Source of the DNA: a virus
Reading direction: 5' to 3' (one strand)
Virus genome (UHGV): UHGV-1714330
DNA length: 13,050 nucleotides
Part shown: positions 1-13,050 of the stretch, in pieces
How the letters are laid out: each line of letters begins with the position of its first letter
Position numbering within the stretch: position 1 is the first letter of the stretch
The notes under the pieces: model-generated
The model's input: only the letters and a program-made list of their open reading frames with translations
Told to the model about the DNA's origin: nothing
Databases searched by the model: none
Program-made: the position numbers and the translations under genes

Positions 1-303
1 GGGAGGGCAATATTATCAGATCAGAGCGATGCCATACGCAACATCACTGGTGAGTTCATGGCTGTAAACGCCGAAAATTATTCAATATGGGAATCAGTAG
101 GCTCGTTTAAGGGGGCAGTGGTGCCTTTGAATCCCTCAACGAACAATAGTTATTTCTCCTTAATCAGAAGTATGGTGATAGAAAGAACAGATGGCTCTGT
201 TTACCCAAAAGTGATTGGCCTTGATGCTTCAAGAATTGTTCCAACTGCAAACGAAAACCGTCCTCGTAACATTGCCTTTAATTATATCGTGAGGGCTGCC
301 TGA
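1..303 (+). CDS. Alternative tail fiber C-terminal (receptor-binding) segment, 5' end outside the window
   Basis: Frame 1 is open from base 1 to the TGA at 301-303, so the listed 58..303 ORF is only the end of a longer reading frame. The C-terminus (..NIAFNYIVRAA) resembles the ends of phage side tail fibers. The stop overlaps the start of the next gene (TGATG). Confidence 0.55.
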   Translation, partial: GRAILSDQSDAIRNITGEFMAVNAENYSIWESVGSFKGAVVPLNPSTNNSYFSLIRSMVIERTDGSVYPKVIGLDASRIVPTANENRPRNIAFNYIVRAA

Positions 304-905
304 TGAATAAAGCCGTATTAAATAACGAACTCATTGCCATAAAAGCGGGAGACATTACCATTTATAATTATGATGGTGAAACGCGGGAATATATTTCCAC
401 ATCAACTGAATATCTTGCTGTGGGTGTCGGTATTCCGGCATTTTCCTGTCTGGAGGCACCTGGCATATACAAGGCTGGTTATGCAATTTGTCGCTCTGTG
501 GATTTAAATTCATGGAAATATGTGCCAGACCATCGCGGTGAAATCGTCTATAACACCGAAACGGGAGACGCCAAAGAAATCACAGCTCCGGGTGATTACC
601 CCGAAAATACAACCACTATCGCCCCGTTAACGCCATACGATAAATGGGATGGTGAGAAATGGGTGACCGATACTGAGGCACAGCATTGCGCCGCAGTAGA
701 CGCGGCAGAAGCACAGCGCCAGTCACTGATTGATGCTGCAATGGCTTCCATCAGTCTGATTCAGCTGAAATTACAGGCCGGGCGGAGGCTGACGCAGGCA
801 GAAACCACCCGCCTTAACGCCGTGCTGGATTACATTGACGCGGTGACGGCAACAGATACCAGCACCGCGCCGGATGTCATCTGGCCTGAACTGCCGGAGG
901 TGTAG
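303..905 (+). CDS. Tail fiber assembly (chaperone) protein, alternative copy
   Basis: 200-aa ORF directly after a fiber C-terminal segment. Its C-terminus carries the motif DTSTAPDVIWPELP, also found at the end of the convergent tail fiber assembly gene at 877..1320. Confidence 0.7.
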   Translation: MNKAVLNNELIAIKAGDITIYNYDGETREYISTSTEYLAVGVGIPAFSCLEAPGIYKAGYAICRSVDLNSWKYVPDHRGEIVYNTETGDAKEITAPGDYPENTTTIAPLTPYDKWDGEKWVTDTEAQHCAAVDAAEAQRQSLIDAAMASISLIQLKLQAGRRLTQAETTRLNAVLDYIDAVTATDTSTAPDVIWPELPEV

Positions 906-1320
906 GCCATTCAATATCGGGGGCTGTTGATGTATCAACACGCATCAGCAGCACACGGTATTTCTTCCATTGGGTGAGAGTTGAAGTTTCTTCATCAGTT
1001 GCGATACCAGCATCAACAGCATCCTGACGCCAGGATATTTCACTGTCAGCTTTTGCACGAAATGTGGCTTTCATGTTTTCTGCATCTGATATTTTCTGTT
1101 CTGGTGAAAGCGGCGGCTCATCAACCCATGCAAGGGTCCCTGAAACCATTCCCAGCATTTTTCCTGTTGGCTTATTTCCCCCATTAAATCTGACAGCATC
1201 CTCATCGCTGATTTCAATACCATCCTGCGGCCATGTCCCCTCCTTGATATAACTTTCATATAGCGCTGCGTTGTAGATTGCATTTTCGGACGGGCTGTAA
1301 ACACTTTTAATTTTATTCAT
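877..1320 (-). CDS. Tail fiber assembly protein (positional equivalent of P2 gpG)
   Basis: 147-aa ORF immediately after H, preceded by a GGGAGA ribosome-binding site. C-terminal motif VDTSTAPDIEWP. Its 3' end overlaps the convergent tfa copy by 29 nt (877..905). Confidence 0.8.
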   Translation of the reverse strand: MNKIKSVYSPSENAIYNAALYESYIKEGTWPQDGIEISDEDAVRFNGGNKPTGKMLGMVSGTLAWVDEPPLSPEQKISDAENMKATFRAKADSEISWRQDAVDAGIATDEETSTLTQWKKYRVLLMRVDTSTAPDIEWPTPPAVQAR

Positions 1321-1324
1321 TCTG

Positions 1325-2542
1325 TTATCTCCCTTTCGCTATATAGCAAAGATTAAACCCACCGGCGCCTGACATACGGGCTGTAAAACCCGTTCTTGAA
1401 GTACCAGTTGAGTTAACTCCATAAGCAGGCATGGTTGCTGGAGAAAGCAGAGACTCCTGGATATCTGCCATTGTCAGTGTAATTGATTCGACCCGCGCGG
1501 GGAAAGGTAGCGGGAAAACAACATTCGTCCCTGTCTGTCCAACGGGGAAACCGAAAATACCCCATTGTGTAATTACCCCTTCCGGCCCCTTACTCCATCC
1601 AGATTTAGGAATCGGCCAGTCTGCTGCTCCAGAGTGCCCCGTTGTAAAACTACTCATATCTGGTACTTGCCCGGTATCCGTTCCGACGTTCCTCGTTGCC
1701 GCTTCTCCCAAACCAAGGTATGCGAGAAGGCCGGCAACATCCTTTCCGCTCAAATGAGTCAGCGTCTCATCCAGTGGCTGCTTACCTGACAGCGCATTGT
1801 TAATGGTGGTGCTGAATTTCGGGTCATTGTTAATGGCTGCGGCAATTTCTTTCAGTGTGTCCAGCGTGGCTGGCGCACCGTTAATCAGAGCGGTAATAGC
1901 GGCCTGAACAAACGCAGTGGTCGCAATCCGCGTGGTGTTATTTCCTGCGGCAGGCGTCGGCGCTTTTGGTTCTCCGGTAAATGTCGGATTATGTTTCTGT
2001 GCATACTGGGTATGAGGATCCTGTGCGGCAATGTGGTTTCTCATCTGGTCATCCACATACAGCCTTAATTCCAGGACTTCATCATCCACGTATTTACGGG
2101 TCGCCAGTACCACCGACGGGTCGATTTTCAGCGTGATGGCTTCGGTATTCGAGACAACCAGAATCATGCGGATAGTCTGGGTACGACCGCTTCCTTCCTG
2201 CAACTGCGGTTTGTACGTTTCCGGGCAGTTTGCCACCGCAATGAGTACGCCTTCATCATCATAAAGCCCAATCTCACGGATCCAGAATCCGCCCTCGTTC
2301 TCAGGGATGATTTGCTCCGCAATAATCTGGCTCTGGTTGTTCGGGTCAACACTCAGAAGATTCAGCGGCGCGATGCGTTTCTGGTTAATCAGTTTTGTCT
2401 GTGCCGGGTCTGGTGTCGGCAAGACACCATTCGCATCACCAACGGCCATTTGCGTCAGATTCAGCTTACTGCCGAGCATCGTCGCGTTAGCCAGCCGTGC
2501 TGCGCCCTGATTAGTCAGAATGGCGTAGTATTTCACTGTCAT
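1325..2542 (-). CDS. H: Tail fiber protein (P2 gpH-like N-terminal domain, distinct C-terminal domain)
   Basis: 405-aa ORF. The N-terminal region (..TQMAVGDANGVLP.., GGFWIREIGLYDDEGVLIAVAN, EGSGRTQTIRMILVV) resembles P2 H and Mu S-type fiber N-termini. The ATG at 2540-2542 overlaps the gpI stop. Confidence 0.9.
   Translation of the reverse strand: MTVKYYAILTNQGAARLANATMLGSKLNLTQMAVGDANGVLPTPDPAQTKLINQKRIAPLNLLSVDPNNQSQIIAEQIIPENEGGFWIREIGLYDDEGVLIAVANCPETYKPQLQEGSGRTQTIRMILVVSNTEAITLKIDPSVVLATRKYVDDEVLELRLYVDDQMRNHIAAQDPHTQYAQKHNPTFTGEPKAPTPAAGNNTTRIATTAFVQAAITALINGAPATLDTLKEIAAAINNDPKFSTTINNALSGKQPLDETLTHLSGKDVAGLLAYLGLGEAATRNVGTDTGQVPDMSSFTTGHSGAADWPIPKSGWSKGPEGVITQWGIFGFPVGQTGTNVVFPLPFPARVESITLTMADIQESLLSPATMPAYGVNSTGTSRTGFTARMSGAGGFNLCYIAKGR
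1703..1728. other. Candidate serine DNA invertase crossover site (hix/gix/cix-like) inside H
   Basis: TTCTCCCAAACC-AA-GGTATGCGAGAA. The two 12-bp half-sites agree at 10 of 12 positions as an inverted repeat around a central AA. It matches hixL (TTCTTGAAAACCAAGGTTTTTGATAA, quoted from memory) at 18 of 26 positions, including the AAACCAAGGT core. It encodes LLAYLGLGE, about aa 272-280 of H. Confidence 0.5.
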
Positions 2543-3150
2543 GCGTTTACTCTCAGGTTATCAATTAAATGAATGGCCGAGGCCGGGAAATAATCCCCTC
2601 CGACAATAATGGCCTCCGGGGTGTAGGGATAAACCGTCAGGGCGTCGCCGTGATAGCATCCCGCACCGGCAAAAATGTTGCCGGTTGTACTTAAACTGAT
2701 AGCCAGTCCCGTCAGATGGCGGCTTGCCGGTTTTGCATCAGCAACGAGGCGCTCCAGCTCCTGATACATTTCTTCGGTAATACCCTGCTCAAGCACGCCA
2801 ACAACGATACGGAACGTCCCCGGCTCCTCGTTGAGCTGCCACCACTCCCTCACCTCAATCAGATAGCCGAGCGGCTCCACCACACGGCGAATCGCACCAA
2901 TAGTGCCCTTATGGCAGTGAATGAAATACGCATCGCGGATAACAGCGCGTTTTGTCGCTTCCGGCCACTTATCATCCCAGCGGTCAACCGAAAATGACCA
3001 CGCCAGCCACGGCAGCAGATTTGCCGGACAGGTATCCGGGTTCCACAGCTCACGAATACTGACCGGCGTTTTTTCAATTTCCGCACAGGCTTTTGCGGTG
3101 GCGACTTCAAGCGGTGATGAGCCGGTCGGCAGCAGGCGCGAATCACTCAT
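2539..3150 (-). CDS. I: Baseplate assembly protein gpI
   Basis: 203-aa ORF beginning MSDSRLLPTGSSPLEV.., in the position between J and H. A GGAGG ribosome-binding site lies 5 nt upstream. It overlaps the J stop. Confidence 0.85.
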   Translation of the reverse strand: MSDSRLLPTGSSPLEVATAKACAEIEKTPVSIRELWNPDTCPANLLPWLAWSFSVDRWDDKWPEATKRAVIRDAYFIHCHKGTIGAIRRVVEPLGYLIEVREWWQLNEEPGTFRIVVGVLEQGITEEMYQELERLVADAKPASRHLTGLAISLSTTGNIFAGAGCYHGDALTVYPYTPEAIIVGGDYFPASAIHLIDNLRVNA

Positions 3151-4051
3151 CCGAGCCTCCGGTCACGACGCGGTATTCGGTACAGAAAGACGCCTGCGTA
3201 CTGTTGAGCACAATGTCGGCCAGTGGTGCGGCCAGCTCGACACGCTGCACGCCTTCCACATGCAAAGCGGCATAAATGGCAGACAGACGGATGTCGCGCC
3301 CCAGCCGGTGCTGTGCCGTGATGTACGCTTCCAGTTTTTTCACGGCAGCAGCGCGGATGGGTTCGCTTTCGGGACCAGGGTAAAGGTAAAGCGTGGCGTT
3401 TATCTGGTATTCAACAATGGCGGCAGACTGCACGGTCACGCGGTCGGCCACCGGCCTGACGTCCTCGCCATTAAGGGCGTTACGCACCACGGCCAGCAGG
3501 TCTTCGGATGCGACGCCGTTATTTTCACGTGACAGCACGGAGATAGTGACGCAGGCCGGAGACGGACTGGTGACAGAGATATCCGCGACACGCCCGTCGG
3601 CACTGCGACCATGATACTGATAGGCTCCCACCGACCCGGCGACGCTTAAGCCCTCAAACGCCTGCTGAATACGCAGACGATAATCGGTGTCAGACTCCAT
3701 CACTGCCGGTGTCGGCGGGATGGTCGAATCATCTGCCGGGGTGATAATCAGGCGCGTGGTGTTGTAATTGGCACCAATCACATCAAGGTCATTACCGGCG
3801 GCACAGGCCAGCATCACCGCCCGTGCGGCCTCATTCACACGCTGACGCCAGATAAGCTCACGATAAGCATTTTCCTCCAGCAGTTTGACGAGAGGCTCGG
3901 ATTCCAGCGTCAGGGTACGGGCGACCGCCTCCTGCTGGTCTTCCGGGTAAAGGGAAATCAGTGTCGCCTTGCGTTCGGCGAGAATGGTTTCAAAGTCCAG
4001 CTCCTCGACCACATCCGGTGCGGGTAGCTGGTTCAGGTCGATAATCGGCAT
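3143..4051 (-). CDS. J: Baseplate protein gpJ
   Basis: 302-aa ORF, the same length as P2 gpJ as I recall it, in the position between W and I. Confidence 0.9.
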   Translation of the reverse strand: MPIIDLNQLPAPDVVEELDFETILAERKATLISLYPEDQQEAVARTLTLESEPLVKLLEENAYRELIWRQRVNEAARAVMLACAAGNDLDVIGANYNTTRLIITPADDSTIPPTPAVMESDTDYRLRIQQAFEGLSVAGSVGAYQYHGRSADGRVADISVTSPSPACVTISVLSRENNGVASEDLLAVVRNALNGEDVRPVADRVTVQSAAIVEYQINATLYLYPGPESEPIRAAAVKKLEAYITAQHRLGRDIRLSAIYAALHVEGVQRVELAAPLADIVLNSTQASFCTEYRVVTGGSDE

Positions 4052-4055
4052 GGTT

Positions 4056-4403
4056 TCAACTCACAGGGATGGTTAACGAAAGTGGCTGGCCGGTGTCGTT
4101 GTGCTGGCCGGTTAACGTGACCGTCATTCGCCCGTCAAAACTGCGCGCCGTGGTGACGGATGACAGGGTGACGCGGGGTTCCCATTTCAGCACCGCCATG
4201 TAACAGGCGACCTTAATCTGCAACTCAAGCGCCGGGGTCTGCGGCTGGTCAATCATTGACGCCAGCAACGAGCCGTAATCACGACGCATCACCCGTGAGC
4301 CGACCGGTGTGCGCAGGATATCGCCGATACTCTGGCTGATATGCTCAAGGTCAGTGACAGTCAGGCCATCACTGCGATTCATTCCGAGATAACGCGCTGT
4401 CAT
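4056..4403 (-). CDS. W: Baseplate wedge protein gpW
   Basis: 115-aa ORF, the same length as P2 gpW as I recall it. Its start overlaps the V stop (ATGA). Confidence 0.9.
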   Translation of the reverse strand: MTARYLGMNRSDGLTVTDLEHISQSIGDILRTPVGSRVMRRDYGSLLASMIDQPQTPALELQIKVACYMAVLKWEPRVTLSSVTTARSFDGRMTVTLTGQHNDTGQPLSLTIPVS

Positions 4404-5035
4404 AGAGGCCCCCCTGTTGTGCCGCCACTGTCGCCGGGGTGTTTATGGGTATGCAGTACCTTACCGTTTGATGAGAGTTCACCGCCGGTGTGTTCAATGT
4501 TGCCGCGCATCGTCCCGCCCTTCTGCACTTCCAGCGTGCCGGTAGTCAGTTTGTTAGTGCAGACCACTTCCGGTGTGTCCAGGGTGACACGGGTTGACGC
4601 TTTCACCGTGACCACCGGTACCGTGGCAGTAACAGAATCAGAAGCCGTCACGCTGGCCGTTTTAATTCCGCTTACCGTGAGCGCGCTGGTTTCGGGTTCA
4701 TACTCAATCACCGCCCCGTCAGGGAAACGGATATGCAGGGCATCCGCCGACGCAGACGGCGCGGGGTTATCGCCGGAATAAATCCCCGGCAGAACGAACG
4801 CCGTGTCGAGTTCACCGCCCACGGCCAGAATCAGCACCTGTTCCCCCACGGAAGGTGCCCACCATGTGCGCGAACGTCCGGCGCGATGGGTCAGCCACTG
4901 AAGCCAGTCGGTGCACATGCCGCCGGTCTGCACACGGCAGCGACCGGCGTTAAGGTCGGTTTCGACGACAATGCCGGTGCGTATCATGTTGCGCAGTGCG
5001 CGCGCGAGTTCCTGAATATTTGCGAGAGTGTTCAT
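4400..5035 (-). CDS. V: Baseplate spike protein gpV
   Basis: 211-aa ORF, the same length as P2 gpV as I recall it, first gene after the S-V intergenic spacer. Confidence 0.9.
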   Translation of the reverse strand: MNTLANIQELARALRNMIRTGIVVETDLNAGRCRVQTGGMCTDWLQWLTHRAGRSRTWWAPSVGEQVLILAVGGELDTAFVLPGIYSGDNPAPSASADALHIRFPDGAVIEYEPETSALTVSGIKTASVTASDSVTATVPVVTVKASTRVTLDTPEVVCTNKLTTGTLEVQKGGTMRGNIEHTGGELSSNGKVLHTHKHPGDSGGTTGGPL

Positions 5036-5046
5036 AACGGGAAGGA

Positions 5047-5070
5047 TGCCGCCGGGTCATACCGGCGGCA
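5047..5070. repeat. Perfect 9-bp GC-rich inverted repeat with a 6-nt spacer in the S-V intergenic region
   Basis: TGCCGCCGG-gtcata-CCGGCGGCA, read directly from the sequence. It sits in the 66-bp gap between the S stop (5102) and the V start (5035). Confidence 0.6.
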
Positions 5071-5101
5071 ATGTGACGATGAGGTGTCGGGAATGGCACA
5101 A

Positions 5102-5554
5102 CTAACGGTCGAGGTGCGCCAGAATAATCTCTTCAATCATCTGCACATCCTCACCGGTAAAGCCGAGCAGAGGACGCGCCGGATAATCAATTTTCTTACC
5201 GTCTTTCCGGGTTTCTTCCGACAGACCGAACTGATGCACGCTGGCGATTTTCGGTGACTTTCCGCCGTAAAACTCCATTGATGCCTGTTCCGGGCTGGCG
5301 CGGATATGCAAAAAACGACTGGTGATAAGTTTCGCAAACATTTTTCGCTTAACGCGACCGGTCTTTTTTCTGGCGCTCTGCTGCTGGCGTGGTGCGTAGG
5401 GTGTGCCGTCCGGGGCTTTCTGTGCCATCACCCGGCGCTGCTGACTCTGCCGCAGACGTTTCGCCAGTTCGGCGCTCAGTCGCCGACGCCCTGACGGTGA
5501 CAGCGATTCAATAAGTCCGGCCAGCCGGTCTTCAAAACGCTTAAACTCATTCAT
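5102..5554 (-). CDS. S: Tail completion protein gpS
   Basis: 150-aa ORF, the same length as P2 gpS as I recall it. Its start overlaps the R stop. Confidence 0.9.
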   Translation of the reverse strand: MNEFKRFEDRLAGLIESLSPSGRRRLSAELAKRLRQSQQRRVMAQKAPDGTPYAPRQQQSARKKTGRVKRKMFAKLITSRFLHIRASPEQASMEFYGGKSPKIASVHQFGLSEETRKDGKKIDYPARPLLGFTGEDVQMIEEIILAHLDR

Positions 5555-6014
5555 CCCACTTGCTCACCAGTTCGCCATTGATATAAAGCTCCACCGGGCG
5601 GGTGACCGGCTCCGGCGGCGGAGGTTCCGGGATATTCTTCACATGCAGTGCGCCGTCCACCTCACTGACCAGCGTGCGCTCGGTCAGCATCAGGCTGATG
5701 CTGATATCAAAGCTGCTGTCATTGTTGATGTCTGCATAAAACGTGAAGCCCTTTTTCTGGCCTTCGTCGGTGGTCATGATGTCGGGCTGATTTTCCCGCA
5801 GCCACGCCAGCACCGGCACGATGAGCAGGTCAAAATCACCGGTAAAGTCGGTCACAATGACATTGAGCGTGTAACGCTTTTCAAATGACAGCGACGTCGC
5901 CAGTGTGGAGGCAATACTCCCGTTATCCACGAATATCCGCAGCATCTCGGGGCTGGTTTTCAGCACCGTGACGGCATCAGTCAGCGCCCTGCGCAGGCTG
6001 TCGGGTTTGAGCAT
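5547..6014 (-). CDS. R: Tail completion protein gpR
   Basis: 155-aa ORF, the same length as P2 gpR as I recall it, directly after the lysis cassette. Confidence 0.9.
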   Translation of the reverse strand: MLKPDSLRRALTDAVTVLKTSPEMLRIFVDNGSIASTLATSLSFEKRYTLNVIVTDFTGDFDLLIVPVLAWLRENQPDIMTTDEGQKKGFTFYADINNDSSFDISISLMLTERTLVSEVDGALHVKNIPEPPPPEPVTRPVELYINGELVSKWDE

Positions 6015-6267
6015 CGTTTTCGTCCTGACAGTGTTTAATCATTTTTACCTGGCTGGCACAGCGTGCCAGCGCGTTCTCAAGCTGCCGGATATCAGCACTT
6101 AAATCGCCGTTCGTCTGCGGGTCACTGCCCGGCATCGGGCAAAGGCTCACTTTCGGGCAGGCGTTGGCGACAATCACTGGCGTCGGTGCAGGCCGGGCGC
6201 TGGTGCAACCGGCGCACAGCATCAGGCAGGTCAGCACCGTACCAGCGGCGAAAATCTTCGTTTTCAT
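5977..6267 (-). CDS. lysC: LysC, outer-membrane spanin (Rz1-like lipoprotein)
   Basis: 96 aa from the internal ATG at 6265-6267 (MKTKIFAAGTVLTCLMLCAGC..). It has a signal peptide with a lipobox-like LCAGC. It is embedded out of frame in the 3' part of lysB and overlaps the start of R. Confidence 0.8.
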   Translation of the reverse strand: MKTKIFAAGTVLTCLMLCAGCTSARPAPTPVIVANACPKVSLCPMPGSDPQTNGDLSADIRQLENALARCASQVKMIKHCQDENDAQTRQPAQGAD

Positions 6268-6547
6268 TAAGTAACCTCGTGATGGTTTTCTCGCGCTGTG
6301 CTTCACGCTTCGCGGCGTTCTCCAGCTCCTGACGCAGTGCCACCTGCGCCAGCTCGTTTTTATCTGCCCTGGTGATGGCAACATGAAGCTGATTTTTCAG
6401 CATGGTGATGGTCGTCTGCTGTTCACTGGCGACGTTGTTCGCCCTGTCCAGCGAGGCGCGCAGGCTGGCATTTTTGTGTTTCACCAGAAACAGACCGGCC
6501 ACCGCCAGTGATAACAACACAACCAGCACAATCATCAGCTTTGACAT
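6122..6547 (-). CDS. lysB: LysB, inner-membrane spanin (Rz-like)
   Basis: 141-aa ORF with an N-terminal transmembrane segment (MIVLVVLLSLAVAGLFLV) followed by a charged, probably coiled-coil region. It overlaps the lysA 3' end by 13 nt. Confidence 0.85.
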   Translation of the reverse strand: MSKLMIVLVVLLSLAVAGLFLVKHKNASLRASLDRANNVASEQQTTITMLKNQLHVAITRADKNELAQVALRQELENAAKREAQREKTITRLLNENEDFRRWYGADLPDAVRRLHQRPACTDASDCRQRLPESEPLPDAGQ

Positions 6548-6960
6548 GGTTCCCGCCCCTCAAAACGCTGACGGCAGGCCGTACGTATCAGCCGGAAGAA
6601 CACCGACGCCACGAGATAAATCAGCGCGGTAAAAATCCACCCGGCAGCGACCAGCGAGATAAATGTCGCCACCATCACCACCAGAGCCGCCGACCGTCTG
6701 CGCCACGGCACCGGCTGCAAAAACAGCGACGTGACAATCTTCACGGCCAGCGATTCCGGCGGCAGCTCCCGCCCGTAGCGTTCCAGTACATACTCAGTGG
6801 CATACACACCGACACCACCGGCAACCACACAGATAACCGTCGCCAGAATCGCCCAGGCGGCGACAAAACTGACGGCCACGCTCTGCGGGTAAATCAGGGA
6901 CAGTGCCAGCATCAGCGCCAGCGACACGTTCAGCATCAGTGAAAGGGATAATTTCTTCAT
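6535..6960 (-). CDS. lysA: LysA, membrane protein of the lysis cassette
   Basis: 141-aa ORF with several hydrophobic segments, located between the endolysin and lysB. Confidence 0.85.
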   Translation of the reverse strand: MKKLSLSLMLNVSLALMLALSLIYPQSVAVSFVAAWAILATVICVVAGGVGVYATEYVLERYGRELPPESLAVKIVTSLFLQPVPWRRRSAALVVMVATFISLVAAGWIFTALIYLVASVFFRLIRTACRQRFEGREPCQS

Positions 6961-6974
6961 GGTGTTTACTCCGT

Positions 6975-7472
6975 TTAAGCCGGTACGCCGCCAGCGGTAC
7001 GCCAGACGGTGACCAGTTTTTCCAGTGAATGCTCACGCTGACCGTAACCGGCTCCCGGCAGGGACGCCCAGATATTGCGACAGCGTGAAATGGCGCGCTC
7101 AATGCGTCCCGCCCGGATGTCATCCAGCGCACCGCGTTCGCGGATCAACTGAATGGCGAGTCTGTCCTGTGACAACGGACTGAAATCCGGCAGGGCAAGC
7201 TGTTTGCGGTAATGCGGCCAGAACAGGTAAAGCTGCTGATAGCGACCGGAGGCCGTGGATTTTTCACCGCGACGGTTAAACACCTTCGCCGGTCGGCCAT
7301 GCGCGAACGGGTGGTCACTGTAGTCGGTGAAAATTTCCGGCTTCCCGTCCAGTCCGGTGACTATCACGTCATAGCCACGGTTTTTCGTCAGCGGATGATT
7401 CGCCGTCCCTTCGGACACGGCCAGCATGTCGAGAAAGGCGGCGATATTCTGATGCGTGTTAATTACCGGCAT
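6975..7472 (-). CDS. K: Endolysin (P2 gpK-like lysozyme)
   Basis: 165-aa ORF immediately after the holin. Its start codon overlaps the holin stop. Confidence 0.9.
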   Translation of the reverse strand: MPVINTHQNIAAFLDMLAVSEGTANHPLTKNRGYDVIVTGLDGKPEIFTDYSDHPFAHGRPAKVFNRRGEKSTASGRYQQLYLFWPHYRKQLALPDFSPLSQDRLAIQLIRERGALDDIRAGRIERAISRCRNIWASLPGAGYGQREHSLEKLVTVWRTAGGVPA

Positions 7473-7753
7473 TACGGTTTCCCCCTGCCCTTAAAGCGGC
7501 GCTGAATGGCAATCTCAATCACCTGATAACCGGCGATACCCAGCATGGAGCCGATGCCGCACACCGCAGGCAGTGACAGGTCAGGAAACTGCACCAGAAC
7601 AACACCGGCAACCATCGAGACAAAACCACCGAGCAACATGCGCCCGATAAACAGACGCGGAGTGATGGGTTCACCACCGGCAAGCACCTTGCCGACAACA
7701 ATCAGCACCCCAATCATGAAAAGCGACAGGACGCTTTTTTCTTCTGCTGTCAT
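7472..7753 (-). CDS. Y: Holin (P2 gpY-like)
   Basis: 93-aa ORF with hydrophobic segments and a charged C-terminus (RRFKGRGKP), located upstream of the endolysin. Confidence 0.9.
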   Translation of the reverse strand: MTAEEKSVLSLFMIGVLIVVGKVLAGGEPITPRLFIGRMLLGGFVSMVAGVVLVQFPDLSLPAVCGIGSMLGIAGYQVIEIAIQRRFKGRGKP

Positions 7754-7756
7754 GCG

Positions 7757-7960
7757 TTACTCCCACAGATTGACAGTTTCAGCCACGGGCGCGGTCTGAA
7801 CGTCGGGCAGTTCGACGGCGGTGCCGTGTGGCAGCACCGCACCCAGTTCAGCCAGTCCCGGATTTGCGGCGAGCACGGTCTCAACCACGCCCTCAGTGCG
7901 CCCGTAATACCGGACACAAATGGCGTCGAGCGTGTCGCCCTGTAGCGCAAAGGTCTTCAT
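7757..7960 (-). CDS. X: Tail protein X
   Basis: 67 aa from the ATG at 7958-7960 (MKTFALQGDTLDAICVRYYG..). The first 23 codons of the 90-aa track ORF are rejected because they lie inside gpL. The start overlaps the gpL stop (ATGA). Confidence 0.85.
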   Translation of the reverse strand: MKTFALQGDTLDAICVRYYGRTEGVVETVLAANPGLAELGAVLPHGTAVELPDVQTAPVAETVNLWE

Positions 7961-8469
7961 CAGATTTGACTCACGATGCAGCGCGGCTTGCCCTGGATGC
8001 GCGCCACCGCCCAGCGCATATCCCGCCACAGTTCATCAATGGTACTGTCAATGCTGTCAGCCTTCTTGTCGCCTTTCGCACTGGCATCCACGCCGCGATA
8101 ACGCTCATAAAGCGACGCGGTCGCCATCGCACACACGGCGCGCTCGTAGTAAAAAACTTTGATGCTTTCACCGTCGATGTCGTCCGCCGGGACGTCCGCC
8201 AGACGCGTAAAACCGGCGGCAATTTTCTGTTCGCGATACTCGTACAGCTCCGCATTCGTCTCCGCCATGCCTGACTTGATGGCCTCACGCAGACGGGCGG
8301 GGGCGACGGTCTGCTCAAGGCGCATACGTTCCCGGACGCGCTTCGGGTCGATATCGGGAAAAAAGAACGTGTTTTTAATCACCGGCTCGTCGCCTGCCGG
8401 TTGCGGGATGACCACCGTACCCTCACCGGACACGGGAGCCTCCTTTCGCGGAATAATCAGCGTCATCAT
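7960..8469 (-). CDS. L: Head completion/stabilisation protein gpL
   Basis: 169 aa from the ATGATG at 8464-8469 (MMTLIIPRKEAP..). A GAGG ribosome-binding site lies upstream. The upstream in-frame extension of the 189-aa track ORF is rejected. Confidence 0.9.
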   Translation of the reverse strand: MMTLIIPRKEAPVSGEGTVVIPQPAGDEPVIKNTFFFPDIDPKRVRERMRLEQTVAPARLREAIKSGMAETNAELYEYREQKIAAGFTRLADVPADDIDGESIKVFYYERAVCAMATASLYERYRGVDASAKGDKKADSIDSTIDELWRDMRWAVARIQGKPRCIVSQI

Positions 8470-8568
8470 GACTACCTCTGAAAAGTCGGGCGGTGGACGC
8501 CGGTGCAGTGTCAGGTGATTCACCCTCACTGACCGGCGTGCCGCCCTGGCGCGGGGCGCATTCGGTTG

Positions 8569-9312
8569 TTAACTGGCTTTCTTTTTCGGGCGTCCACGTT
8601 TTGCCGGTGCCACGCTCCGGGTCTTACGCGGGGCGCGCGTGGCCGCTTTTGGCTGCGGCTCCGGCTTCGGTTTCAGTTCCCGCTCCAGTCGTTCAATCTC
8701 TTTTTTGACGCCTGCCTGACAGTCGAGCTGTGTCGCACGTTGCAGGTGAGCCAGCGCACCGGCGGCATCACCACCGTCACGCAGAAACAGACCGGTGATT
8801 TTGTGCAGCTTTGCGCGCACTTCATCAGGCATGTCAGCCGTGGCGGTCAGTTCAAGGGTCTCCGTCAGCAGGCGGGTATCCACAGACTCACCGGCAGCGT
8901 GAGCGCGCATGGCCGCAAGCGCTACCTCCTCGGTGAACATGTACGGCGGGGTACGGCGGTGTTTACCCGGCATGGTCAGACCGTACTTCAGGGCATAACG
9001 GGCAATCTCCAGCGCACCGGCAATATCGCCGGTATCCAGACGCCACAGCATGACCGTCATCAGAATGTCATCCTGTGCACCTTTGCCCTGCTCCAGCACG
9101 CCGTTCACCCACGGCAACCAGAACGGCAGCAGTTCGCGTTTTTTCGCGGCCTTCAGCTCTTTTGAATAAATCGCTTTCAGTGTGCGCTGGTCTGCGGCGA
9201 GCTTAACCAGCATCTGCTCATAGACAGTTGCATGTCGCAGCGGGGCGGCTTCCCGCTGCGCGGTCATCGCTGCCGAGACCCGCATCATGTGGCGCTGTGC
9301 GGGACTCGTCAT
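8569..9312 (-). CDS. M: Terminase small (endonuclease) subunit gpM
   Basis: 247-aa ORF with a basic Lys/Arg/Pro-rich C-terminal tail, located between N and L. Confidence 0.9.
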   Translation of the reverse strand: MTSPAQRHMMRVSAAMTAQREAAPLRHATVYEQMLVKLAADQRTLKAIYSKELKAAKKRELLPFWLPWVNGVLEQGKGAQDDILMTVMLWRLDTGDIAGALEIARYALKYGLTMPGKHRRTPPYMFTEEVALAAMRAHAAGESVDTRLLTETLELTATADMPDEVRAKLHKITGLFLRDGGDAAGALAHLQRATQLDCQAGVKKEIERLERELKPKPEPQPKAATRAPRKTRSVAPAKRGRPKKKAS

Positions 9313-9315
9313 CGG

Positions 9316-10389
9316 TTACGCTCCCGGCTCTGCGGTCGCTTTAGCCAGTGTGGAGAAATCACCGACCTTAATTTTTTCCACCAGACAACCGGCGGCGTAG
9401 TCCTCCACCACGTAATCAATGTTCATTGACTCGTAGTTCTCCACGCGGTCGAGTTTCGGGTTTTCCTCAATCACGCGGCGATGGCTGTCATCCATGTAGT
9501 AGATGGACAGGTTTTCCAGCTTCGTGATGAGCATCGCATCCGCCGGGAAGTACGGGACGCGTACCGCCGGCAGGTTACCGATGCGTTTCTGGCTGATGAT
9601 GACGTCAGCGGCCAGCATTTCGCTGTTGTCCTGCTCCTTGTTGACGATGGGAAAATACTTGTCCGCCAGTAGCTGACGTCCCACAATCACCACAAGGTCA
9701 GGGTCTTCCTGATACCACGGCTCAATCAGGTTGTTGGTCGCATCCATCACCAGTGCATCGAGGCTGGCATAATCACCGCCCTTACCCACGCGGATGACCT
9801 CAGAGGTGGTGTGCCCTTCCTCGTCAGTGACCTTGCTCATCACGCGCGCCGGGGCTTCATTGCGGTATTTCTGCAGCCAGCCGACCGCCACATCCTGCAG
9901 CATCGGATTGCTGCTGCGGTCAGAGGTTTCGGCACGCTTCACGCCGTTAAAACCGGCCATGATGAAATCAAGGGACTGGCGTTTGATAATGGCGTTACGG
10001 ACACGGAGCTGGAAATCCTGATAACGCGCCCACAGGTCCAGCGTTTTGTAGCGGATATAAAAATCGAAGTTAATCTGGTCGCATTCGTACTTGTTTGACG
10101 CCAGCTTCGAGAAGTCCTTCGGCTGACGCTCGGTGCCACCGGCGGTGTCGGTGGTGCTGGCGATGGAGCCGGTGACACCGATGCCAATTTTTTCCCCTTT
10201 CATTTCGCTGACCGGCACAATGTTGATGCGGGTCAGAAAGTCAGAGGACTCCTGCATGGTGTTCATCAGGGTCTGGGTGACCGACGGTTCAACGGTGAAT
10301 TTTTTCGACACATCACCGGCGTCGATGCCGTTCAGTTCGGCAACACGGGACAGGTAGGCATTAAATTTAAAGCGGGTTTCCTGGCGCAT
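9316..10389 (-). CDS. N: Major capsid protein gpN
   Basis: 357-aa ORF beginning MRQETRFKFNAYLSRVAELNGID.., located after the scaffold gene. Confidence 0.95.
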   Translation of the reverse strand: MRQETRFKFNAYLSRVAELNGIDAGDVSKKFTVEPSVTQTLMNTMQESSDFLTRINIVPVSEMKGEKIGIGVTGSIASTTDTAGGTERQPKDFSKLASNKYECDQINFDFYIRYKTLDLWARYQDFQLRVRNAIIKRQSLDFIMAGFNGVKRAETSDRSSNPMLQDVAVGWLQKYRNEAPARVMSKVTDEEGHTTSEVIRVGKGGDYASLDALVMDATNNLIEPWYQEDPDLVVIVGRQLLADKYFPIVNKEQDNSEMLAADVIISQKRIGNLPAVRVPYFPADAMLITKLENLSIYYMDDSHRRVIEENPKLDRVENYESMNIDYVVEDYAAGCLVEKIKVGDFSTLAKATAEPGA

Positions 10390-10447
10390 AGTTTTTCCTG
10401 AAATTAAGGGTTAATCGTGAAGGTTTTCCCGGACTGACTGACGCCGG

Positions 10448-11302
10448 TCAGCAGTTCGTCATCAGGGCGTCACCGCCACCGCCGGTGGCCTTGCTGCGGC
10501 GCTGCTGGGTCAGACTTTCGGTGTGGTCGAGGCTGTTTTTCAGGCGGGTGAATGCCTGGCTGGTTTCATCCGCCCTGTCAGTCACATCCTGCTTAAGTGC
10601 GGAAAAGGCGGTTTCCATCTCAGCGAGGCGCTGCTCAGTGGCACTCAGTTTTTCCTGCACATGTTCAGCAACAGCGGTCACCGCTTCATGCACGTCATTC
10701 AGACGGGCGTCATCGCTGGCCTGTTTGCGGCCAAAAATGGATTTCACCTTTTCAGTCAGGGCGGTGAACACGGTTTCAGGCAGGTCTTCAAATTCCAGCT
10801 CAACGGGCGTTGCCACTGAAATCAGATTTTCAGGGCTTAATTTGAAGCGGTTCAGGGGGTTGTGTTTTGCCGTGCGGCAGAATTCCAGGTATTCCGTGCC
10901 GAGGCTTGCCGGGTCATCGGTGACGGCCAGCCCCACCAGATAACATTTGCCGGTGTTGGCAAAGTTCGGCTGAATTTCCATTGAGGTATAGACCTTCTGC
11001 GCGGCCTTGTTCATCGCGATAAGGTCATCGGTCGGGGTGATTTTCGCAAACAGCGCCCATTTGCCTTTCAGCGCCGAATCATCGTCAATCTTTTCGGCCT
11101 TCAGTTCGACCACATCGCCATAACGCTTAAAAATACCGTCAGGCAGGATGCCGCGCAGATGTTCCAGGTTAATGCGGCAACCATAGACTCGCGGGTCAAA
11201 GGTTTCGGCCATTTCCTGAATATCCTGCGCACTGATGACACGCCCGTCACAGGTGTCACCCTCAACGCCGATACGAAAGAATTTTGAGACTTTTTTTGCC
11301 AT
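10448..11302 (-). CDS. O: Capsid scaffolding protein gpO
   Basis: 284 aa from the ATG at 11300-11302 (MAKKVSKFFRIGVEGDTCDGR..). The upstream 22 codons of the 306-aa track ORF are rejected. Confidence 0.9.
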   Translation of the reverse strand: MAKKVSKFFRIGVEGDTCDGRVISAQDIQEMAETFDPRVYGCRINLEHLRGILPDGIFKRYGDVVELKAEKIDDDSALKGKWALFAKITPTDDLIAMNKAAQKVYTSMEIQPNFANTGKCYLVGLAVTDDPASLGTEYLEFCRTAKHNPLNRFKLSPENLISVATPVELEFEDLPETVFTALTEKVKSIFGRKQASDDARLNDVHEAVTAVAEHVQEKLSATEQRLAEMETAFSALKQDVTDRADETSQAFTRLKNSLDHTESLTQQRRSKATGGGGDALMTNC

Positions 11303-11475
11303 TGTCAGGAGTCCTGAATAGTGATTAGAGGAGTCACATGTCGGCATCAGTTTCCCGACGATGCGCATCCTCCGCCATCAGTCCCGGATGGCTTATCACT
11401 GACACAACAGCACCTTAGCGAATCGCGGGGCGCGACTCAGTAGCCTTGCCGTGTATTCATCACGGCGAGGTATTC
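11303..11475. promoter_or_regulatory. Divergent intergenic region between O and P, expected site of the divergent late promoters
   Basis: 173-bp non-coding gap between two divergently oriented operon starts. It contains a GTCGG-N10-CCGAC dyad (11340..11359), a GCCGTG-N7-CACGGC dyad (11448..11466) and a TATTCAT direct repeat (11454..11460 and 11471..11477). No promoter element could be assigned with confidence. Confidence 0.4.
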
Positions 11476-13050
11476 ATGACCATCACCACAGACACCACTC
11501 TTTTACACGACCCGCGTCGTCAGGCGGCGCTGCTGTACTGGCAGGGATTTTCCGTGCCGCAGATTGCCGCCATGTTGCAGATGAAACGCCCGACGGTGCA
11601 GAGCTGGAAACAGCGCGACGGCTGGGACAGCGTTGCCCCCATCAGCCGTGTCGAAATGAGTCTGGAAGCGCGGCTGACCCAGCTCATCATCAAACCGCAG
11701 AAAACCGGCGGTGACTTCAAGGAAATTGACCTGCTCGGACGCCAGATTGAACGGCTGGCACGGGTCAACCGTTACAGCCAGACCGGCAACGAGGCAGACC
11801 TTAATCCGAACGTCGCTAACCGCAACAAAGGCGGGCGTCGCAAACCGAAAAAGAATTTTTTCAGTGACGAGGCCATCGAAAAGCTGGAGCAGATTTTCTT
11901 TGAGCAGTCTTTCGAATATCAGTTGCACTGGTATCGCGCCGGGCTTGAGCACCGCATCCGCGATATCCTGAAATCCCGCCAGATTGGCGCGACGTTTTAT
12001 TTTTCCCGCGAGGCGCTGCTGCGTGCCCTGAAAACCGGCCATAACCAGATTTTTCTGTCGGCCAGTAAAACGCAGGCGTATGTGTTCCGCGAATACATCA
12101 TCGCCTTTGCCCGTCTGGTTGACGTTGACCTGACCGGTGACCCGATTGTCCTGGGCAATAACGGCGCAAAACTGATTTTTCTCGGCACCAACTCCAACAC
12201 CGCGCAGAGCCATAACGGCGACCTGTACGTCGACGAGATTTTCTGGATCCCGAATTTTCAGGTACTGCGTAAGGTGGCATCAGGTATGGCCTCACAGAGT
12301 CACCTGCGCTCGACCTATTTCTCCACCCCGTCCACGCTGGCGCACGACGCCTACCCGTTCTGGTCGGGTGAACTGTTCAACCGGGGACGCGCCAGCGCCG
12401 CCGAACGCGTGGAAATCGACGTCAGTCATAACGCCCTTGCCGGTGGGCTTCTCTGTGCGGACGGCCAGTGGCGGCAGATTGTCACCATTGAGGACGCCCT
12501 GAAAGGCGGCTGCACGCTGTTCGACATTGAGCAGCTCAAACGTGAAAACAGCGCCGACGATTTTAAAAACCTGTTCATGTGTGAATTTGTTGACGACAAG
12601 GCGTCGGTGTTCCCGTTCGAGGAGCTGCAACGCTGCATGGTCGACAGCCTCGAAAAATGGGAGGACTACGCGCCATTTGCCGACCGGCCATTCGGTCACC
12701 GCCCGGTGTGGATTGGCTACGACCCGTCATTACGTGGCGACAGCGCCGGGTGCGTCGTTATTGCGCCGCCGGTCGTTGCCGGTGGCAAATTCCGCATCCT
12801 CGAGCGCCACCAGTGGAAAGGGATGGACTTCGCCCAACAGGCCGAATCCATTCGCGAACTCACGCAGAAATACACCGTGGAATATATCGGCATCGACGCG
12901 ACCGGGCTCGGTCAGGGCGTTTTCCAGCTCGTGCGGTCTTTCTACCCGGCTGCACGTGAAATCCGCTACACGCCGGAAATGAAAACCGCGATGGTGCTCA
13001 AAGCAAAAGACACCATTCGCCGCGGTTGCCTCGAGTACGACGTCAGCGCG
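11476..13050 (+). CDS. P: Terminase large (ATPase) subunit gpP, 3' end outside the window
   Basis: The frame is open from the ATG at 11476 to the window end (525 codons, no stop), with a GAGG ribosome-binding site 5 nt upstream. It begins MTITTDTTLLHDPRRQAALLYWQGF.. and contains a Walker B-like LYVDEIF. It is missing from the ORF track because no stop occurs in the window. Confidence 0.9.
   Translation, partial: MTITTDTTLLHDPRRQAALLYWQGFSVPQIAAMLQMKRPTVQSWKQRDGWDSVAPISRVEMSLEARLTQLIIKPQKTGGDFKEIDLLGRQIERLARVNRYSQTGNEADLNPNVANRNKGGRRKPKKNFFSDEAIEKLEQIFFEQSFEYQLHWYRAGLEHRIRDILKSRQIGATFYFSREALLRALKTGHNQIFLSASKTQAYVFREYIIAFARLVDVDLTGDPIVLGNNGAKLIFLGTNSNTAQSHNGDLYVDEIFWIPNFQVLRKVASGMASQSHLRSTYFSTPSTLAHDAYPFWSGELFNRGRASAAERVEIDVSHNALAGGLLCADGQWRQIVTIEDALKGGCTLFDIEQLKRENSADDFKNLFMCEFVDDKASVFPFEELQRCMVDSLEKWEDYAPFADRPFGHRPVWIGYDPSLRGDSAGCVVIAPPVVAGGKFRILERHQWKGMDFAQQAESIRELTQKYTVEYIGIDATGLGQGVFQLVRSFYPAAREIRYTPEMKTAMVLKAKDTIRRGCLEYDVSA

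Follow-up and report, generated by a model that had tools for sequence, protein, structure and literature searches.

A probable PinE/Gin-type host-range switch in the tail-fibre region of a P2-like prophage contig

The inversion of tail-fibre segments is by now known from e14, Mu, P1 and P2-like prophages, and the feature that we describe here is this same switch and adds no new biology to it. In the P segment of e14 in E. coli K-12 the genes stand in the order stfP/ycfK - tfaP - tfaE - stfE' - pinE, and the G segment of Mu (NC_000929) is arranged as Sc / Sv-U / U'-S'v / gin, with sites of 26 bp that contain a 2-bp core and with annotated segment boundaries that fall exactly on this core. Comparable invertible tail-fibre loci are present in the P2-like prophages of EPEC E2348/69 (Goldberg et al, 2014), and coexisting orientations have been detected by sequencing in e14, with confirmation by PCR, and in two P2-like EPEC prophages (PMC4272514). 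Invertases with inverted neighbouring genes are also common in the P2 hotspot (bioRxiv 10.1101/2024.10.15.618418). Here, we describe a metagenome contig in which positions 1..1728 are, with a probability that we put at roughly 0.86, the visible four-fifths of an invertible tail-fibre segment of ~1.9 kb, placed in a P2-like late operon and forming a host-range switch of the PinE/Gin type.

The window, by which we mean the whole stretch of 13,050 bp that was analysed (1..13,050), is an entire metagenome contig (ENA ERZ773186, NODE_2614) with a coverage of 3.9x. Its minus strand carries capsid, lysis, R, S, V, W, J, I, H and G-like genes in which the P2-like late order V-W-J-I-H-G is found, with Tail_P2_I and Baseplate_J among the Pfam matches and GPW_gp25, Phage_base_V, Phage_tail_S, P2_Phage_GpR and LysC as further P2-type families. 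From about position 1700 rightwards, Peduovirus pro483 and many E. coli prophages are 97–98% identical to the window in DNA, with 98% identity for pro483 over 1696..5000. These similarities support the assignment to a Peduovirus-type, P2-like prophage whose host is E. coli or a close relative. At the right end, a plus-strand frame of 544 codons (11419..13050) leaves the window at a position that is presumably that of the P2 terminase gene P, and the 236-aa open reading frame inside it on the opposite strand (11503..12213, minus) is probably spurious antisense. The tail-fibre module at the other end had been described in the first-pass annotation as AT-richer than its surroundings, and the base composition bears this out: GC content is 47.6% in 1..1702, 52.3% in the constant part of H and 57.6% in the remainder of the window, where the minimum over every 1702-bp stretch is 54.3%. 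The fall toward the left is graded, with the lowest values of 41–43% in 1..600.

The fibre gene H (1325..2542, minus strand) encodes 405 aa, with a Phage_tail_fib domain at the N-terminus and a gp53-like domain at the C-terminus, and it is divided by a crossover site into a constant and a variable part. The constant part, Hc (1729..2542, minus), lies outside the invertible segment, matches Phage_tail_fib (PF12571, E 9.2e-63) over residues 1–150, holds the start codon and receives late transcription; it is collinear at 97–98.5% in all relatives, whichever way the segment points. The variable part that is currently expressed, Hv (1325..1702, minus), corresponds to a gp53-like receptor-binding tip (Gp53-like_C, PF21882, E 2.6e-09), which also gives a weak match to 4MTM. 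Starting 4 nt downstream of the H stop codon, in the position of P2 G, is the gene for the tail-fibre assembly chaperone of this expressed cassette (877..1320, minus; 147 aa; Caudo_TAP, E 9.8e-33).

On the plus strand, the left end of the window is occupied by the 3' part of an alternative variable tip, Hv' (1..303, plus; 100 codons and a stop), which belongs to a silent cassette and is cut by the contig end. Its frame is open from base 1, is closed by TGA at 301..303 and encodes 100 aa that end in ...ENRPRNIAFNYIVRAA. The sequence is 93% identical to that of E. coli SC418 (locus L002:4001-4303), where it lies within an annotated 'phage tail protein'. About 69 codons of Hv' and the left crossover site are missing at the contig end. 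The 100-aa fragment alone gives no Pfam match; when completed with 69 residues from a relative, Hv' matches the Collar domain (PF07484, E 3.6e-15). It then also aligns with the T4 gp37 fibre tip over its collar and C-terminal strand (2XGF, E 3.5e-17) and with 9cuy, deposited as a 'short tail fiber' (E 3.7e-25), in agreement with the fibre-like C-terminus that had been proposed for this open frame. The left end of the window sits in the collar-coding part of this alternative tip, and because this collar stretch is common to many fibre genes, the left break looks like a repeat-induced assembly stop and not like a biological boundary.

The Hv' stop codon is overlapped by 1 nt by the ATG of a second assembly chaperone gene (303..905, plus; 200 aa; Caudo_TAP, PF02413, E 2.4e-32). 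Its product is TfaE-like, with 88% amino acid identity to e14 TfaE over 199 aa. A PDB sequence search with the 200-aa protein returned no match at E <= 0.01. Promoters and terminators predicted in 1..2700 are as frequent as expected from shuffled sequence, and there is no sign of a promoter belonging to the silent cassette itself.

The two assembly genes converge, as the first-pass annotation had it, and share the 29 nt of 877..905 at their 3' ends, according to the coordinates of 303..905 and 877..1320. Both proteins are clear Caudo_TAP members (112.3 and 113.5 bits, where the curated cut-off is 22.1), and each gene stands directly behind a fibre tip. The same 29-nt overlap is found in e14 tfaP/tfaE, pro483, SC418, strain 144 and HCM-28C-2; its positions are 4518..4546 in the e14 locus (L008), 5601..5629 in pro483 (L001) and 4877..4905 in SC418 (L002), and it is kept in e14 and the P2-like relatives whichever minus-strand chaperone is present. 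A shared ending, given before as DTSTAPD-x-WP, is indeed present in both proteins, but the spacer consists of two residues (VI in one, IE in the other), and the motif has to be written DTSTAPD-xx-WP. The nucleotide sequences behind it differ, as had also been stated, with agreement at 21 of the 33 motif-coding nucleotides. In assembly chaperones of this type the C-terminal domain is the conserved part and mediates trimerisation, while the N-terminal domain is fibre-specific (PMC9608196); the common DTSTAPD-xx-WP lies in the conserved C-terminal domain and is a family trait.

On the right, the segment is bounded by a 26-bp site of the Pin/Gin type at 1703..1728, TTCTCCCAAACC AA GGTATGCGAGAA, with the core dinucleotide at 1715..1716. 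As in other switches of the Din family (Gin/Cin/Pin/Hin), two imperfect 12-bp half-sites in inverted arrangement surround the 2-bp core. The site lies within H at the junction of constant and variable part, is unique in the window and stands above chance expectation. Both sites at the ends of the e14 segment have the same inner half-site (12/12) and the same AA core, and the Mu gix sites share the format. Several other P2-like phages are similar to the window from 1702 onwards, as expected for a constant/variable junction, and homology and inversion breakpoints in the relatives fall at 1703..1728. We searched the window for a second or internal site, allowing up to 3 mismatches to the full site, up to 2 mismatches to a half-site with core, or a degenerate core, and recovered 1703..1728 and a chance-level match at 6252. 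On this search, the visible part of the segment gives no evidence that would point to a multi-site switch.

Where, then, is the partner of this site? Because the contig ends inside the alternative cassette, a second site and an invertase gene would lie outside the view that it offers, and the relatives have to be read instead. In pro483, SC418, strain 144 and HCM-28C-2, the site corresponding to 1703..1728 forms the best inverted repeat of the region together with TTTTC(A/T)TAAACG TT GGTTTGGGAGAA, located at the start of the alternative frame, about 195–220 bp to the left of the position that aligns to window position 1. The second site is present in the loci of pro483 (L001), SC418 (L002), strain 144 (L003), HCM-28C-2 (L009) and PigCaeca_1 (L010), and it is identical to the pinE-proximal site of e14. 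The expectation that the alternative frame begins at an inverted copy of 1703..1728 therefore holds in every close relative examined, and in this contig the copy lies beyond the left end. Adjoining the left site in the relatives is a serine invertase gene, the 197-aa product of which contains Resolvase (2e-52) and HTH_7 (1e-12) domains and shares 87% of its residues with e14 PinE and 80% with Mu Gin. From these relatives we infer that the genome from which the window derives also carries the second site and an active invertase. Within its 5' part, the invertase gene of the Gin and Hin systems contains a recombinational enhancer that binds Fis. The corresponding part of the relatives' gene has a mean column identity of 86% with pinE and gin, and by analogy the reaction may depend on Fis and such an enhancer.

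Does the segment flip? We inverted it in silico at the core dinucleotide, with 207 nt borrowed from SC418 (L002) to complete the left end, and found that Hc becomes joined in frame to Hv' at ...LLAYL|GLGEGSALPVGVPVPW..., the GLGE junction, which gives one open H of 445 aa with a Collar domain. Among 5,426 complete E. coli genomes, in which orientations were counted, this flipped Hc–Hv' junction is contiguous in 38, at 93–98% identity, and is annotated as a fibre CDS of 1338 nt followed by tfaE; it is also present in one phage record, Salmonella phage MET_P1_103_31. The alternative tip Hv' lies silent beside the invertase in 66 of the 5,426, and the gp53-like tip that the window expresses is the one that lies silent beside an invertase in 16. 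Pairs of genomes give the same picture. SC418 and Q65 have collinear flanks (99.96% and 98.2%) around a middle of 1878 bp that is inverted (99.1%) and the ends of which overlap the sites. Positions 249..1719 of the window run in the same direction in strain 144 (97.1%) and in the opposite direction in HCM-28C-2 (97.9%), and both strains are collinear with the window in the flank from 1702. The same segment occurs in nature in both orientations between collinear flanks, in a comparison between genomes and not within the sample of the window, and copies that are 97–98% identical over most of the segment are found in both orientations in public E. coli genomes. The proposal of an invertible two-host-range cassette has thus held up on the site, the in-frame flip, the two orientations between collinear flanks and the gene order of Mu and e14. 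Silent cassettes in these genomes carry annotations as stand-alone CDSs under the names 'phage tail protein', 'gp53-like domain-containing protein' and 'hypothetical protein'; such calls are found at 3752..4303 in SC418 (L002), 4395..4826 in HCM-28C-2 (L009), 5936..6346 in L005 and 4068..5054 in L007. They start at an ATG immediately beyond the crossover site and are probably promoterless gene fragments that the annotation has mistaken for genes.

How would the switch operate? In the arrangement that we propose, H is split by the 26-bp site at 1703..1728, and Hc (1729..2542) would stay with the baseplate genes and the late promoter. The segment itself consists of two promoterless, mirror-image cassettes, each with a variable tip followed by its own assembly chaperone. 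The gp53-like Hv and its tfa (1702..877, minus) are the cassette joined to Hc and expressed in the configuration captured by this contig, and the collar/gp37-like Hv' with the tfaE-like gene (1..905, plus) is silent. A PinE/Gin-type serine invertase, expected to be encoded just past the left contig end, would bring the site in H together with an inverted copy ~200 bp left of position 1 and invert the segment by cleavage at the AA/TT core. Such a flip would fuse Hc in frame to Hv' and place the tfaE-like gene behind it, and a phage population would then give rise to virions with one of two receptor specificities, as we infer that the two tips bind different receptors.

Could the left-hand frame instead belong to a static second fibre gene, an independent and separately expressed tail fibre with its own chaperone, of the kind known from phages with two sets of fibres, that involves no inversion? 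PGAP calls the homologous frames of SC418 and HCM-28C-2 stand-alone CDSs with an ATG, as such a gene would have. These CDSs, however, encode 143–183 aa that do not include the Phage_tail_fib N-terminal domain, have their start a few codons ahead of the crossover site and continue across it. In the 38 genomes with the flipped junction, this sequence continues the reading frame of Hc. The first-pass annotation had stated that inversion would be contradicted if the frame were a complete gene in its own right, with a promoter and a start and no recombination site beside it; the frame was found to have no N-terminal fibre domain and no promoter excess, and in the relatives it is flanked by the site. 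We consider a static second gene highly improbable and have rejected it, as it is contradicted by the in-frame flipped junction and by the inversions between SC418 and Q65 and between strain 144 and HCM-28C-2. A comparably faint chance is left for an assembly chimera, in which the fibre modules of two prophages would have been joined via the conserved C-terminal region of the assembly proteins and the convergence would be an artefact. The low coverage of 3.9x and the homology breakpoints at ~249 and ~939 are what such a chimera would predict, but strain 144 is collinear with 249..5000 of the window in one piece (97.1%), and pro483, e14 and complete genomes all show the same convergent overlap of 29 nt. 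On this collinearity and this conservation the chimera was rejected as well.

More weight, although still little, goes to a frozen remnant, in which the segment is real but can no longer turn, through loss or inactivation of the invertase gene or of the left site, and the alternative tip and chaperone are permanently silent relics. Since some related prophages have decayed, a frozen switch is conceivable here too. In PigCaeca_1, H is split into two partial pieces (L010 5839..7122), in strain 144 frameshifts are flagged in the fibre gene, in one assembly gene and in the silent tip (L003 3489..6291), stfE of e14 is annotated as a pseudogene in K-12, and in the window the left part lies beyond the contig end. 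Yet the window shows no damage to H, to either assembly gene or to the visible part of the alternative frame, the right site is identical to that in genomes that show both orientations, and an intact invertase gene of 197 aa adjoins in every relative examined that has the same arrangement. We regard the frozen remnant as unlikely. The PigCaeca_1 and strain 144 copies of the switch are themselves either decayed or mis-sequenced.

The segment is also a mosaic. No database genome covers the full 1..2600 at >=99%, and the whole segment is not reproduced by any single genome. Positions 1..248 of the window are nearest to SC418 (93%) and 249..1719 to strain 144 and HCM-28C-2 (97–98%). Homology to the relatives switches at ~248/249, at ~939/940 and at 1695–1702; 1..939 resembles SC418 and e14, and none of SC418, pro483 and e14 contains 940..1695. 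It seems that half-cassettes have been exchanged at conserved joints, namely the collar region, the region of the Tfa C-terminal motif and the crossover site. It is doubtful that the locus varies beyond two states, either by half-cassette swapping at the joints at ~1702 (site/GLGE), ~939 (Tfa motif and 29-nt overlap) and ~249 (collar), or by a third site and a further cassette to the left as in the three-site EPEC prophage. If it did, the swapping would produce a combinatorial library of tip/chaperone pairs, and a third site with a further left cassette would make the locus a multi-state switch.

Recognition of a host-range phase-variation switch calls for three changes in the annotation of the contig: H becomes a fusion of a constant and a variable part, the contents of 1..905 become one silent alternative cassette instead of independent genes, and 1703..1728 becomes a recombination site. 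The call also helps to predict that two virion types are released by the prophage.

Compared with the described systems, the closest homologue of the window segment is the e14 P segment. One order, with the constant fibre part, Hv-tfa, the convergent tfa'-Hv' and the invertase, is common to e14 and to the window read together with its relatives, and 253..939 of the window is 88.5% identical to e14 at the DNA level. In contrast to the complete-looking P2-type late module of the window, however, e14 is a defective lambdoid element; it has no counterpart of 940..1695 (the gp53-like tip and its tfa), and the outer half-site is GGTTTTCGAGAG in e14 and GGTATGCGAGAA in the window. The loci of P2-like prophages (pro483 and those of strains 144, HCM-28C-2, SC418 and Q65) agree with the window in phage type and in their position between I/H and the sheath gene FI, share the type of site and invertase, and have 97–98% DNA identity over most of the segment. 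One of the EPEC prophages has three sites and four variants, whereas a single site is visible in the window. The G segment of Mu shares gene order and logic with the window, and the order noted in the first-pass annotation equals that of the NC_000929 record, with e14 closer still. Nonetheless, 1..2600 of the window has no detectable DNA similarity to the Mu G region, and the two differ in the length of the segment (~3 kb in Mu, ~1.9 kb in the window and its relatives), in the spacing of the assembly genes (U and U' are 28 nt apart, those of the window overlap by 29 nt) and in the core (TC/GA in Mu, AA/TT in the window and relatives). Judged by sequence, Mu is an analogue in architecture and invertase only, and e14 is the true homologue.
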